Of a stretch of DNA of 3,593 nucleotides, positions 1 through 3,593 are shown in pieces (positions within the stretch are counted from its first letter, which is position 1; each line of letters opens with the position of its first letter). The DNA comes from a virus (Duplodnaviria; Heunggongvirae; Uroviricota; Caudoviricetes): positions 1 through 3,593 of IMG/VR virus record IMGVR_UViG_2737471853_000013. The stretch is one strand, 5' to 3'. The position numbers were made by a program, and so were the translations under genes. The notes beneath the pieces are model-generated. The model saw nothing but the letters and a program-made list of their open reading frames with translations. It did no database searches and was not told where the DNA came from.

Positions 1-681
1 ATGACACCGGACATTATCCTGCAGCGTACCGGGATCGACGTGAGAGCTGTCGAACAGGGGGATGATGCATGGCACAAATTACGGCTCGGCGTCATCACCG
101 CTTCAGAAGTTCACAACGTGATAGCAAAGCCCCGCTCAGGAAAGAAGTGGCCTGACATGAAAATGTCCTACTTCCACACCCTGCTGGCTGAGGTTTGCAC
201 CGGTGTGGCTCCGGAAGTTAATGCTAAGGCGCTGGCCTGGGGAAAACAGTACGAGAACGACGCCAGAACCCTGTTTGAATTCACTTCCGGCGTGAATGTT
301 ACTGAATCCCCGATCATCTATCGCGACGAAAGTATGCGCACCGCCTGCTCTCCCGATGGTTTATGCAGTGATGGCAACGGCCTTGAACTGAAATGCCCGT
401 TTACCTCCCGGGATTTCATGAAGTTCCGGCTCGGTGGTTTCGAGGCCATAAAGTCGGCTTACATGGCCCAGGTGCAGTACAGCATGTGGGTGACGCGAAA
501 AGATGCCTGGTACTTTGCCAACTATGACCCGCGTATGAAGCGTGAAGGCCTGCATTATGTCGTGGTTGAGCGGGATGAAAAGTACATAGCGAGTTTTGAC
601 GAGATGGTGCCGGAGTTCATCGAAAAAATGGACGAGGCACTGGCTGAAATTGGTTTTGTATTTGGGGAGCAATGGCGATGA
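1..681 (+). CDS. exo: Lambda-type 5'-3' dsDNA exonuclease (Red-alpha / Exo), 226 aa
   Basis: Full-length ORF starting at window position 1 with ATG. The 226-aa translation matches the phage lambda Exo sequence as I recall it along its whole length ([31 protein letters not shown]...[15 protein letters not shown]), with the same length. The stop overlaps the next start in ATGA, as in lambda. Not confirmed by a search. Confidence 0.95.
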
Positions 682-860
682 CGCATCCTCACGATAATAT
701 CCGGGTAGGCGCGATTACTTTCGTCTACTCCGTTACAAAGCGAGGCTGGGTATTTCCCGGCCTTTCTGTTATCCGAAATCCACTGAAAGCACAGCGGCTG
801 GCTGAGGAGATAAATAATAAACGAGGGGCTGTATGCACAAAGCATCTCCTGTTGAGTTAA
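678..860 (+). CDS. orf60a: Small lambdoid early-region protein, lambda orf60a-like (60 aa from ATG 678; alternative ATG at 672 gives 62 aa)
   Basis: ORF immediately after exo. ATG 678 overlaps the exo TGA stop (ATGA, 4-nt overlap), reproducing the lambda exo/orf60a junction and the 60-aa length as I recall them. No functional knowledge. Confidence 0.7.
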
Positions 861-1024
861 GAACGAGTATCGAGATGGCACATAGCCTCGCTCAAATTGG
901 AGTCAGGTTTGTGCCAATACCAGTAGAAACAGACGAAGAATTTCATACGTTAGCCGCATCCCTTTCACAAAAGCTGGAAATGATGGTGGCGAAAGCAGAA
1001 GCAGATGAGAGAGACCAGGTATGA
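833..1024 (+). CDS. orf63: Small lambdoid early-region protein, lambda orf63-like, 63 aa
   Basis: 192-nt ORF overlapping the previous gene by 28 nt in a different frame. Length and position match lambda orf63 as I recall the lambda map. Acidic C-terminal half (ETDEEFH...KAEADERDQV). Confidence 0.7.
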   Translation: MHKASPVELRTSIEMAHSLAQIGVRFVPIPVETDEEFHTLAASLSQKLEMMVAKAEADERDQV

Positions 1025-1316
1025 CAACCACGGAATGCATTTTTCTGGCAGCGGGCTTCATATTTTGTGTGCTTATGCTTGCCGACATGGGACTTGTTCA
1101 ATGACACCTCAGCAAGAAAACGCCCTTCGCAGCATTGCCCGTCTGGCTAACTCTGAAATCAAAAAAGCCAGACAGCAGTTTCCGGATAAAAACGTCGATG
1201 ACATTTGCCGTAGCGTACTGAAGAAGCACCGCGAAACGGTAACGCTGATGGGATTCACACCGACTCATTTAAGTCTGGCGATCGGCATGTTAAACGGCGT
1301 CTTTAAGGAGCGATGA
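1005..1316 (+). CDS. Small lambdoid early-region protein, orf61-like position; 103 aa from ATG 1005 (in-frame alternative starts at 1035 and 1101)
   Basis: ORF whose ATG at 1005 overlaps the orf63-like stop by 20 nt, the same overlap I recall for lambda orf63/orf61. A GAGAGAGA purine run lies upstream of 1005. The product is longer than lambda's 61 aa, so the start or the C-terminal region is uncertain. Its stop overlaps a strong AAGGAG motif. Confidence 0.55.
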   Translation: MRETRYDNHGMHFSGSGLHILCAYACRHGTCSMTPQQENALRSIARLANSEIKKARQQFPDKNVDDICRSVLKKHRETVTLMGFTPTHLSLAIGMLNGVFKER

Positions 1317-1337
1317 ACATGAAAAGCAAAATCATCA

Positions 1338-1362
1338 GGGAGCTACAGGCTCCTTTTTTATT
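1338..1362 (+). terminator. Intrinsic-terminator-like hairpin (GGAGC / 5-nt loop / GCTCC) followed by TTTTTTATT
   Basis: Seen in sequence: gggagc-tacag-gctcc then a run of six T. It lies inside a 25-codon sORF (1319..1396) and upstream of the TraR-like gene. Confidence 0.45.
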
Positions 1363-1414
1363 GTTCGCATTCACCCTCAAGCGTATTAACCAATAATTCA
1401 GGGATTAATGGAAG

Positions 1415-1636
1415 ATGGCAGACATCATTGATTCAGCATCAGAAATTGAAGAATTACAGCGCAACACAGCAATAAAAATGCGCCGCCTGAACCACCAGGC
1501 TATATCTGCCACTCATTGTTGTGAGTGTGGCGATCCCATAGATGAACGAAGACGCCTGGTCGTTCAGGGTTGTCGGACTTGTGCAAGTTGCCAGGAGGAT
1601 CTGGAGCTTATCAGTAAACAGAGAGGTTCGAAGTGA
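1415..1636 (+). CDS. TraR/DksA-family C4 zinc-finger protein (RNA polymerase secondary-channel regulator family), 73 aa
   Basis: Translation contains the family's C-x2-C ... C-x2-C zinc-finger spacing (CCECGDPIDERRRLVVQGCRTCASC) on a 73-aa scaffold. Lambda carries a 73-aa TraR-like ORF in the same region (my recall). The stop overlaps the next gene's GTG (GTGA). Confidence 0.85.
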   Translation: MADIIDSASEIEELQRNTAIKMRRLNHQAISATHCCECGDPIDERRRLVVQGCRTCASCQEDLELISKQRGSK

Positions 1637-2049
1637 GCGAAATTAACTCTCAGGCACTGCGTGAGGCGGCAGTAGCAATTGAAACAGTAGCAACGCCTCA
1701 AAAATTGCTGGCATTTCGTATGAAAGTCACACCTCAGGTTGTGCTGGCACTGCTGGATGAACGGGAAAGAAACCAGCAATACATCAAACGCCGCGACCAA
1801 GAGAACGAGGATATTGCGTTAACGGTAGGGAAGTTGCGCGTTGAGCTTGAGGCAGAAAAACAGCGGGCAAAGGATCTGTTTATGGAAAATGCTCGGCTTA
1901 AGTCAGGTATAGCCGGTCTGATACACCTCGGTATTCGATATGCAGATGTTGAGGTCATGAGAATTGCTGGAGATGCCCAGCTTTCTACCCCATGCACTGA
2001 CAGCATCATAAACAGCATTGCAACAGGCATTCGCATCAAAGGAGAGTGA
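1633..2049 (+). CDS. ea22: Ea22-like lambdoid early protein, short variant (138 aa), GTG start
   Basis: GTG start at 1633 overlapping the upstream stop, with GAGAGG about 6 nt upstream. The N-terminus (MSEINSQALREAA...LLDERERNQQYIKRRDQENEDIA) and C-terminal ...GIRIKGE resemble lambda Ea22 as I recall it. A predicted coiled-coil-like stretch (LTVGKLRVELEAEKQRAKDLFMENARLK) is present. Shorter than lambda Ea22 (about 182 aa). Confidence 0.65.
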   Translation: MSEINSQALREAAVAIETVATPQKLLAFRMKVTPQVVLALLDERERNQQYIKRRDQENEDIALTVGKLRVELEAEKQRAKDLFMENARLKSGIAGLIHLGIRYADVEVMRIAGDAQLSTPCTDSIINSIATGIRIKGE

Positions 2050-2050
2050 T

Positions 2051-2719
2051 ATGAGCGCTATAACCAAAGAACGTATCAAATTATTCATTAAAAATCCGCT
2101 TGATAACGGACTTACTCGTGGCGAACAAATGGAACTGGCACGAATTGCACTGGCATCACTGGAACGCGAACAGATTCGCCACGAGCATGCCAAATGGTCT
2201 GACTCCACATTTGGCTGCGTTGGCCCCATTGGTCCGCTGAAACATCTCTCAAAAGAGGCACTGGAAGCCGCAGCCGAACCAGACGATCTTAGCGAGTGGG
2301 CTGATATGCAGTTTCTGTTGTGGGATGCACAGCGCCGTGCTGGCATCAGCGATGCTGAAATTACCGCTGCTATGGAAGATAAATTGAAGATCAACATGGA
2401 GCGCCAGTGGCCTGAGCCAAAAGATGGTGAGCCTCGCTTGCACATTAAAGAACCCGGCAACTATCCGGTAACTCCGGATGGTTGGATAAGCTGTAGTGAG
2501 CGAATGCCAGAAATGGGAGAGCGACAATGCTATGTGTTAGCAGCTGACTTTAAAAACAACTACCCACCAAACATCCCCAACACTCAGGTCGGCGTATATG
2601 GCGACTGGTTTAATGATGGCAATCCAACTTGGGATGACGGTGATGGCGAAGACCTGTATCTCAAAGAGGTAACCCACTGGATGCCTCTACCAGAACCGCC
2701 TCGATTAAAGGAGCTATAA
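2051..2719 (+). CDS. Phage accessory protein: N-terminal MazG-like/DUF550-type predicted dATP/dGTP pyrophosphohydrolase domain fused to a C-terminal DUF551 domain (222 aa from ATG 2051)
   Basis: ATG 2051 lies 6 nt after AGGAG (2040..2044) and 1 nt after the Ea22-like stop; the longer track ORF from 2018 has no ribosome-binding site. The N-terminal half has an all-alpha, acidic-residue-rich pattern (HEHAKWSDSTFG...EALEAAAEPDDLSEWADMQFLLWDAQRR...) typical of MazG/DUF550 NTP-PPase-like phage proteins. The C-terminus ends in the DUF551 hallmark ...VTHWMPLPEPP. Domain calls are from memory of the families. Confidence 0.8.
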   Translation: MSAITKERIKLFIKNPLDNGLTRGEQMELARIALASLEREQIRHEHAKWSDSTFGCVGPIGPLKHLSKEALEAAAEPDDLSEWADMQFLLWDAQRRAGISDAEITAAMEDKLKINMERQWPEPKDGEPRLHIKEPGNYPVTPDGWISCSERMPEMGERQCYVLAADFKNNYPPNIPNTQVGVYGDWFNDGNPTWDDGDGEDLYLKEVTHWMPLPEPPRLKEL

Positions 2720-2815
2720 TAGTGAACTATTATATCTATTTGTATTAAAAGAGTTTTTATAAAATAAATCTTCCAAAGCATGTAAAAACACTGTTAATCT
2801 TAACGTGTGTGAAAC
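2720..2815 (+). promoter_or_regulatory. Very AT-rich intergenic region; candidate promoter and/or nucleoid-protein binding region for the downstream moron gene
   Basis: Hand count gives about 21% G+C over 2721..2800, against roughly 50% in flanking genes. It contains several weak sigma70-like hexamers (for example TTGTAT at 2740 and TATAAAAT at 2758) but no pair with convincing spacing, so the exact promoter is not assigned. Confidence 0.3.
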
Positions 2816-2833
2816 GTGAAGAGAGGTGTTGAA

Positions 2834-3115
2834 ATGAGCATTCATGATTTGTGTGAAGATCAAGAGCAATGGGCTATGCAGACCCTTATGGGATCAGGAG
2901 TTCTTGCAAGGTGCAGAATCCATAACGATGTAATTTTAGACAGCGGAAATGATGCTTCTTCTGCTTATAAATTAGGAACTTACCTATATCAAAAAGATAA
3001 TAGCTGCAACTTATTCAATACTCTTACTGAAGCCCGCGACGCAATAAAGGATGCATATGAATCGTATTGTGGGATCGATGATTGCCCACAATGCTCAAAA
3101 TACATTGACGATTAA
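2834..3115 (+). CDS. ea8.5: Ea8.5-like small Cys/His-rich protein (93 aa), low-GC moron gene
   Basis: ATG 2834 is preceded by AGAGGTG (2822..2828) at 5 nt; the GTG at 2816 used by the track is less likely. Size (93 aa) and position between the Ea22 region and xis match lambda ea8.5 as I recall. Cys/His pattern (C..CRIH...C...YCGIDDCPQC) fits a zinc-binding fold. Hand-counted G+C is about 39%. Confidence 0.6.
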   Translation: MSIHDLCEDQEQWAMQTLMGSGVLARCRIHNDVILDSGNDASSAYKLGTYLYQKDNSCNLFNTLTEARDAIKDAYESYCGIDDCPQCSKYIDD

Positions 3116-3135
3116 TAATATGAACAAGTAACTAT

Positions 3136-3160
3136 CCTCGCACTCGCGGGGATTTCTTTT
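3136..3160 (+). terminator. Intrinsic terminator: 6-bp stem (CCTCGC/GCGGGG, one G-U pair), ACTC tetraloop, then ATTTCTTTT
   Basis: Seen in sequence 20 nt after the Ea8.5-like stop: stem 3136..3141 pairs with 3146..3151, followed by a U-rich tract. Confidence 0.5.
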
Positions 3161-3167
3161 ATCTGAA

Positions 3168-3190
3168 CTCGCTACGGCGGGTTTTGTTTT
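3168..3190 (+). terminator. Second hairpin plus U-tract element (CTCGC/GCGGG stem, then TTTTGTTTT); tandem terminator or structured leader
   Basis: Seen in sequence: 3168..3172 pairs with 3177..3181 (one G-U pair), followed by TTTTGTTTT, immediately upstream of the GGAGA ribosome-binding site of the 55-aa sORF. Confidence 0.35.
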
Positions 3191-3203
3191 ATGGAGATGA
3201 TAA

Positions 3204-3371
3204 ATGCACTTCCGAGTCACAGGTGAATGGAATGGAGAACCATTCAACAGAGTTATCGAAGCAGAGGACATCAACGACTGCTATAACCACTGGATGATAT
3301 GGGCGCAGATAGCGCATGCAGACGTAACCAATATTCGAATTGAAGAACTGAAAGAACACCAAGCCGCCTGA
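3204..3371 (+). CDS. Small hypothetical protein, 55 aa (MHFRVTGEWNGEPFNRVIEAEDINDCYNHWMIWAQIAHADVTNIRIEELKEHQAA)
   Basis: Not in the ORF track (below the size cut-off); found by reading. ATG 3204 has GGAGA (3193..3197) 6 nt upstream. The TGA stop lies in the loop of a strong terminator hairpin. Lambda has a similarly sized unnamed ORF between xis and ea8.5 (my recall, uncertain). Confidence 0.5.
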   Translation: MHFRVTGEWNGEPFNRVIEAEDINDCYNHWMIWAQIAHADVTNIRIEELKEHQAA

Positions 3372-3386
3372 TGGCGGTTTTTTATT
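3362..3386 (+). terminator. Intrinsic terminator: 7-bp stem (AGCCGCC/GGCGGTT), TGAT loop, then a T-run
   Basis: Seen in sequence: 3362..3368 pairs with 3373..3379, loop 3369..3372 contains the sORF stop codon, followed by T-rich 3378..3387. Confidence 0.6.
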
Positions 3387-3401
3387 TCCTGGAGAATTAA
3401 G

Positions 3402-3593
3402 ATGACCGATACCAGCCTGATTCCTGAGAAAGAAGTGATGAACAAGCTCGGTGTTTCATCACGTCAGACAATCTGGAACTATACCAAACGGCACGGATTT
3501 CCGAAGCCAGTCAGAACCCACCCCAAATCATACCTTCGTGAGGCTGTTGAAGGGTGGATTCTTAACGGTGGCGTTAATCAGAAATGCTCCTGA
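3402..3593 (+). CDS. xis: AlpA-family excisionase / phage transcriptional regulator (Xis-like), 63 aa
   Basis: ATG 3402 has GGAGA (3391..3395) 6 nt upstream. The translation has the AlpA/Xis winged-helix pattern (LGVSSRQTIWNYTKRHGFPKPV...REAVEGWI) and the expected position at the int-proximal end of the operon. It is not lambda-type Xis. The ORF is complete, with TGA at the window end. Confidence 0.85.
   Translation: MTDTSLIPEKEVMNKLGVSSRQTIWNYTKRHGFPKPVRTHPKSYLREAVEGWILNGGVNQKCS

Follow-up and report, generated by a model that had tools for sequence, protein, structure and literature searches.

The closest described relatives of the gene considered here are phage enzymes of the DUF550 family (PF04447, whose present Pfam name is 'dATP/dGTP pyrophosphohydrolase'). 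MazZ of cyanophage S-2L, a single-domain protein of 105 aa, is (d)GTP-specific (PMC8342488) and supplies dGMP to PurZ. The enzyme of Acinetobacter phage SH-Ab 15497 (MazZ-2 type; L006:32865-34022) has an N-terminal DUF5664 domain but lacks DUF551, and is reported to convert dGTP and dATP to dGMP and dAMP with release of pyrophosphate (PMC12884076); its gene adjoins those of PurZ and DatZ, and the phage swaps adenine for 2-aminoadenine. The DUF550 proteins of Z-genome phages form a monophyletic group of their own (PMC12884076). A second set of relatives shares DUF551 (PF04448), described as a 'portable' domain found in an Ea22 variant of Stx phages, where Ea22-DUF551 fusions are known (PMC10834534). 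In the CPS-53 prophage, the DUF551 protein YfdS adjoins the HD-domain protein YfdR, and loss of yfdS results in H2O2 sensitivity (PMC4776307). DUF550 proteins of the P22 EaA type in lambdoid and P22-like prophages, including ORF25 of N7 and gp35 of ev017, belong to the same gene family and occupy the same genome position as the gene studied here; a literature search on P22 EaA turned up one passing mention and no functional data. [quoted passage not shown] A literature search found no paper joining the exo-xis region with a pyrophosphohydrolase.

Organization of the exo-xis segment

The window, by which we mean the whole analyzed stretch of 3,593 nucleotides, covers the region from exo to xis in a lambdoid prophage, with all genes on the plus strand. 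It encodes a lambda-type exonuclease (1-681), orf60a (DUF1317; 672-860), orf63 (DUF1382; 833-1024), a 71-aa ORF (1101-1316), orf73 with a TraR/DksA zinc finger (1415-1636), a 138-aa Ea22-like protein (1633-2049; PF13935, E=2.2e-21), the complete 222-aa protein with a leader, DUF550 and DUF551 (2051-2719), an Ea8.5-like protein (2834-3115), a 55-aa orf55-like protein (3204-3371), and an AlpA-type excisionase (3402-3593). The start of the Ea8.5-like gene is probably ATG 2834 (93 aa, as in E. coli J31) and not GTG 2816 of the ORF list. The TraR/DksA-like orf73 is located 415 nt upstream of the 222-aa gene in the same operon; TraR-type proteins have been reported to act on RNA polymerase. The original prediction located the 222-aa gene at a site flanked by the Ea22-like and Ea8.5-like genes, where we indeed find it, and its account of the lambda map is also correct: in lambda, a gene-free interval of 191 bp separates ea22 (29847-30395) from ea8.5 (29374-29655). 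We assign the gene as P22 EaA-like on the basis of its ORF, its Pfam matches, and an identical protein present on 903 public contigs (UniProt A0A7A8GJA1).

The reading frame extends from ATG at 2051 to TAA at 2717-2719. The Ea22-like gene ends with TGA at 2047-2049, which leaves a spacer of 1 nt, and AAAGGAGAG at 2039-2047 provides a good Shine-Dalgarno site before ATG 2051. Given this spacing and this site, the proposed translational coupling to the Ea22-like gene is plausible, while expression as such is presumed from the position of the gene. The protein would be made early from the leftward pL operon of the lambdoid prophage, from a variable cargo slot right after ea22, and probably translated by the coupling described above. 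A TTG start at 2018 (233 aa) was rejected because it overlaps the Ea22-like gene, lacks a Shine-Dalgarno site, and gives no better domain matches. Family searches gave no match for two antisense ORFs, one of 185 aa at 1903-2460 and one of 92 aa at 2249-2527, and the sole Rfam match, to mir-277 (E=0.14, far under the gathering score), was dismissed as chance. Terminator-like hairpins number nine against 3.4 expected. Those with T-runs on the plus strand are located after the 71-aa ORF (1337-1355), as a tandem pair behind the Ea8.5-like gene (3134-3153 and 3165-3184), and after the 55-aa ORF (3361-3380), and no such hairpin was found 3' of the DUF550-DUF551 gene. In a pL operon under N antitermination these hairpins may be regulatory.

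The DUF550 domain: fold, active site and predicted activity

Both domains named in the original prediction were recovered far over the Pfam cut-offs. PF04447, formerly DUF550, covers residues 42-137 (2174-2461; E=5.5e-42) and scores 142.4 bits, where the cut-off is 23, with positions 1-96 of the 97 in its profile aligned. PF04448 covers residues 144-217 (2480-2701; E=2.9e-20) and scores 73.3 bits, where the cut-off is 22, with positions 1-67 of 68 aligned; the protein has no match in NCBIfam. Residues 1-49 alone match separate PHROG families, an indication of a third, N-terminal module, for which no Pfam family was found. The predicted acidic character holds for the protein as a whole (pI 4.77), in contrast to its basic leader (pI 8.25 for aa 1-41). 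The motif VTHWMPLPEPP, taken earlier for the end of the protein, is present; however, it lies 7 residues before the end, and the protein terminates in ...KEVTHWMPLPEPPRLKEL.

An AlphaFold2 model of the full-length monomer, built on a 54-sequence alignment, reaches pLDDT values of 80-93 over residues ~20-120 and contains helices at 23-54, 62-75, 80-96, and 101-117; in this model the N-terminal two-thirds of the protein are all-alpha, as had been supposed. The top Foldseek match in the PDB is S-2L MazZ (7ODY; probability 1.00, TM 0.63-0.69 on the target), with a superposition of 3.1 A over 87 columns at 29% identity, followed by B. subtilis YpjD, Bacillus MazG, HisE enzymes, and Sulfolobus MazG. 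The E-values from Foldseek (0.02) are weak, owing to the multi-domain nature of the query. The model is thus a confident four-helix bundle of the MazG/HisE type, with MazZ as its best structural match. A single-sequence search of the PDB returned MazZ only, at E=0.56, and significance therefore required profile and structure comparison. An HMM of lambdoid-type DUF550 domains, with E-values scaled to PDB size, matched the SH-Ab 15497 enzyme at E=2.3e-5 and S-2L MazZ at E=4.7e-4, with the ExxE...ExxD motif in register in both cases. Both characterized enzymes are distant relatives, that of SH-Ab 15497 scoring 33 bits on PF04447 and aligning with the query by BLASTP over 42 residues only, at about 40% identity.

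For comparison of individual residues, the S-2L MazZ and SH-Ab 15497 sequences from the genome records were aligned with 133 DUF550 domains from cluster representatives, using the metal-binding and substrate-contacting residues of MazZ as listed in PMC8342488. The register of the SH-Ab 15497 ExxE motif was taken from the HMM alignment, the MAFFT alignment being offset by three residues. The four acidic residues E69 and E72 (ExxE; E35 and E38 in MazZ) and E82 and D85 (ExxD; E50 and D53 in MazZ), whose conservation was in question, are each 100% conserved in the 133 representatives and correspond to E194, E197, E208, and D211 of SH-Ab 15497, in which the K, N, R, and W positions are also in register. 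W49 (MazZ W15), D92 (MazZ D60, which contacts the guanine 2-amino group), K111 (K76), N115 (N80), R118 (R83), and W120 (W85) are each 98-100% conserved in the same set. Ten metal- and substrate-binding residues thus align with MazZ, as does its C-terminal R..H pair, represented here by R129 (R94 in MazZ, 97% conserved) and H131 (H95, 95% conserved). The segment with R129 and H131, which in MazZ completes the pocket of the partner subunit, is present in the protein and is modeled with low confidence in the monomer. Four positions of the base pocket differ between MazZ and the 222-aa protein (I12/H46, I16/S50, N20/F54, and I56/F88), and specificity may therefore differ from that of MazZ.

Family membership, fold, and conservation of the catalytic and pocket residues are thus established for the DUF550 domain. 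Fold, motif, and pocket agree in favouring a catalytically competent purine (d)NTP pyrophosphohydrolase, and by sequence and model the fusion protein very probably has the activity of a MazZ-type dGTP/dATP pyrophosphohydrolase. Conservation of the DUF550 core over many domain architectures is as expected of a domain under selection. As the main explanation of the gene, we consider it likely that its enzymatic part, a member of the DUF550/MazZ family, works as a metal-dependent pyrophosphohydrolase of purine (d)NTPs. We propose that the gene encodes an all-alpha (MazG/HisE-fold) NTP pyrophosphohydrolase dependent on divalent metal, which would cleave purine (deoxy)nucleoside triphosphates to the monophosphate and pyrophosphate; dGTP/GTP would be the most probable substrates, with dATP possible. 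By analogy with MazZ, the protein would form a dimer or tetramer, in which the conserved WPEPKDGEPRLH tail would complete the pocket of the neighbouring subunit.

The biological setting differs from that of the characterized enzymes. Neither purZ nor datZ was found in the window or in the 12.7-kb J31 prophage context, both of which contain recombination, exo-xis, and integration genes only, and this absence of linked Z-cluster genes excludes a MazZ of the Z-genome pathway. Since these lambdoid phages make no 2-aminoadenine DNA and lack PurZ, the sole known biological role of the family cannot apply to the query, and neither can the supply of dGMP to PurZ described for S-2L. The original prediction named remodeling of dNTP or alarmone pools and degradation of nucleotides used in host defence as roles; all of these are speculative, and the present evidence separates none of them.

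Conservation of D92 would fit any guanine nucleotide, including (p)ppGpp, and is thus shared by an alternative reading in which the protein is an alarmone hydrolase that removes (p)ppGpp and thereby blunts stringent-response-dependent abortive infection or shifts the lysis-lysogeny decision. The presence of a TraR/DksA-like gene in the same operon and the removal of (p)ppGpp reported for E. coli MazG are in line with this reading, as is the phage MazG-like protein Atd1, which hydrolyses ppGpp, leaves rNTPs uncleaved, and gives protection from TIR effectors (bioRxiv 10.1101/2022.06.09.495361). However, Atd1 has a catalytic domain of the classical MazG type and not DUF550 (bioRxiv 10.1101/2022.06.09.495361), the 222-aa protein matches no MazG Pfam family (classical MazG, PF03819) at E<=0.1, and the nearest assayed relatives use (d)GTP/(d)ATP, so that we regard an alarmone hydrolase as improbable. 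Do the TraR/DksA-like and DUF550 genes jointly manipulate stringent-response signalling? At this point the idea is conjecture only. [quoted passage not shown]

The DUF551 domain

Alignments of DUF551 variants show near-invariant ends, PV.PDGWI.CSERMP and VTHWMPLP..P, on both sides of a hypervariable middle that is unalignable between variants. A profile search returned thousands of relatives, mostly stand-alone prophage proteins of 75-175 aa from Escherichia, Salmonella, and Enterobacter, and a few relatives fused to Ead/Ea22 or DUF550. The ends W...SERMP...THWMPLP are common to the query, YfdS, the Stx-phage Ea22 variant V2, and the stand-alone proteins; the query differs in that its DUF551 is fused to an enzyme, whereas DUF551 elsewhere mostly stands alone or is attached to an Ea22 coiled coil. 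The pairing of DUF551 with an enzyme has a parallel in CPS-53, where YfdS adjoins the nucleotide phosphohydrolase-like YfdR (PMC4776307). Both AlphaFold predictions of DUF551 are of low confidence: in the full-length run its pLDDT is about 40-60, and a DUF551-only run on 89 sequences gave a mean pLDDT of 59 and a pTM of 0.35. A DUF551 profile search against the PDB found no solved relative; its best match, LAMTOR1 (E about 0.9), was taken as chance. Our guess is that DUF551 serves as an exchangeable interaction or targeting module.

The MazG-fold superfamily includes known sanitising enzymes, which counts in favour of a further reading, namely, that the protein is a house-cleaning or counter-defence hydrolase of purine nucleotides that are non-canonical or made by defence systems, such as 8-oxo-dGTP, dITP, or viperin-type chain terminators, with DUF551 diversifying in an arms race. 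The hypervariable middle of DUF551 between its conserved ends would be in keeping with such diversification, as would a connection to oxidative stress, seen in the H2O2 sensitivity of cells without YfdS (PMC4776307) and in the action of oxidative stress on Stx prophage induction through exo-xis (PMC4699033). On the other hand, the hypervariability is also explicable by cassette recombination alone, and PADLOC, a library of defence and not anti-defence systems, assigned the 222-aa protein to no family at E<=0.1; this reading, too, appears distinctly unlikely. Elements of the alarmone and counter-defence readings can be combined: in temperate enterobacterial phages with normal DNA, the DUF550 enzyme might serve not the bulk dNTP pool but the hydrolysis of a guanine-nucleotide signal or toxin, either (p)ppGpp or modified GTP analogues made in defence, and be aimed or regulated by the hypervariable DUF551 cassette against fast-evolving host targets. 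We rate this combination as doubtful. If true, DUF550-DUF551 would be a widespread, unrecognised counter-defence or lysogeny-control module carried by about half of E. coli genomes.

Modular composition and distribution of the gene

The protein had been described as a fusion of two domains. DUF550 and DUF551 are indeed present, but the modules number three to four, with the leader (~38 aa) and the linker recombining separately; four pieces, namely leader, DUF550 core, linker, and DUF551, make up the mosaic of the gene. The basic leader (aa 1-38; 2051-2164), recognized by its separate PHROG matches, runs on into the first helix of the enzyme domain. Its sequence (nt 1-114 of the gene) matches alone in the EaA genes of other phages, and among family representatives the leader is also paired with other downstream modules. 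The enzyme core (gene nt ~112-401) forms a separate match unit among phage records. The conserved linker with the start of DUF551, GNYPVTPDGWISCSERMPE (2456-2517; gene nt 406-467), is a DNA-level recombination joint identified by isolated phage-record matches: in most of the Stx/P22-like phage records listed it is the sole match, at 88-98% identity. The longer interval of gene nt 406-650, with the present DUF551 variant, matches phage BP-4795, and ORF25 of N7 is 98.9% identical to the gene over nt 1-472. Relatives of the P22 EaA type differ from the query in the leader, a linker insert, or the DUF551 variant or other C-terminal module, and no INPHARED phage record covers >=80% of the exact combination.

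The surroundings of the gene are equally mosaic. A portable inter-gene joint, CTGGCATTCGCATCAAAGGAGAGTGATATG (2023-2053), comprises the end and stop of the upstream gene, the Shine-Dalgarno site, and the start codon. The window, Stx2a_WGPS8, and N7 share exactly this sequence, and its neighbours vary, with a different gene after it in WGPS8 and a different gene before it in N7. Outside the window, the coordinates of this ~30-nt joint are L004 3054-3084, L005 2473-2503, and, in lambda, L002 2656-2685; in lambda, its ATG is changed to ATC and no gene follows, as if a cargo gene had been lost there. The window is 95.6% identical to lambda up to nt 1860, inside ea22 and past its coiled-coil part, and from nt 1861 to 3068 DNA similarity to lambda is absent save for a 27-nt island at 2026-2052. 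The Ea22-like gene accordingly resembles lambda ea22 (182 aa) in its N-terminal and coiled-coil portion but not in its C-terminal portion (nt 1861-2025), where DNA similarity to lambda is lacking; it is a further case of the mosaic Ea22 C-terminal domains known from the literature. A prophage of E. coli J31 has the same arrangement, with 98.8% identity over nt 1-3386 of the window. The excisionase end (nt 3362-3593; AlpA/HTH_17-like, a weak Pfam match) is 96.6% identical to Stx2a-converting phages including Stx2a_WGPS8, and not to lambda xis. Thus, the window is a hybrid of a J31/lambda-type body and an Stx2a-type excisionase end. GC content falls from ~0.50 in the 222-aa gene to 0.34-0.38 in the AT-rich spacer (2720-2833) and the Ea8.5-like gene, and this drop suggests that the spacer and the Ea8.5-like gene are a separately acquired module.

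The original prediction regarded the gene as the most plausible functional novelty in the window. This view is not borne out: the identical protein on the 903 contigs already carries the same annotation in databases, under the names 'DUF550 domain-containing protein' and 'dATP/dGTP pyrophosphohydrolase domain-containing protein', and the gene is a common, already annotated E. coli prophage gene belonging to a known family. Several complete E. coli chromosomes contain the 669-bp gene at 100% identity; of 5,426 complete E. coli genomes, 49 have at least 80% of its length and 2,635, about half, have some part. A large share of E. coli genomes appears to carry a prophage MazZ-like enzyme with its catalytic residues intact. 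A HMMER search of 1.84 billion cluster representatives found 4,174 relatives at E<=0.001. Among the best 150 of these, PF04447 is present in 138, DUF551 in 49, and both in at least 37, with other partners rare, which makes DUF550 plus DUF551 a standard architecture.

In the RefSeq/PGAP annotation of E. coli J31 (NZ_CP053787.1; L001 6001-6669), the identical ORF is split in two, the first piece being a 42-aa 'partial hypothetical' pseudogene and the second a protein of 189 aa; older records annotate the full 222 aa. This split and the mosaic of modules could be taken to mean that recombination has left an inactive gene, in which part of a leader is joined to a shortened enzyme gene and which has no function of its own. 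Several observations argue against it: the reading frame is unbroken and begins with an ATG behind a Shine-Dalgarno site, the 189-aa form begins at Leu34, a CTG codon, the leader heads many other family members, and the identical 222-aa protein recurs on so many contigs. Moreover, helix 23-54 runs unbroken in the model across the leader/enzyme boundary, the supposed break, and the catalytic residues are all intact. We therefore consider an inactive product highly improbable, and the PGAP split looks like an annotation artefact arising from the mosaic N-terminus.

Longer variants of 276-278 aa (P0131; P0082, on 829 contigs) are more abundant and have a different leader; in the 277-aa variants an extra module of ~65 aa is located between duplicated GN(S/Y)PVTP linkers. 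Some sources misname the 276-278-aa variants 'dTDP-6-deoxy-L-hexose 3-O-methyltransferase'. On one ENA contig, a 361-aa protein (P0007) is a single fusion of Ea22-like, DUF550, and DUF551 parts, in which the reading frame changes ~14 codons ahead of the Ea22 stop and then continues across the junction; this suggests either a sequencing error or a natural frameshift.
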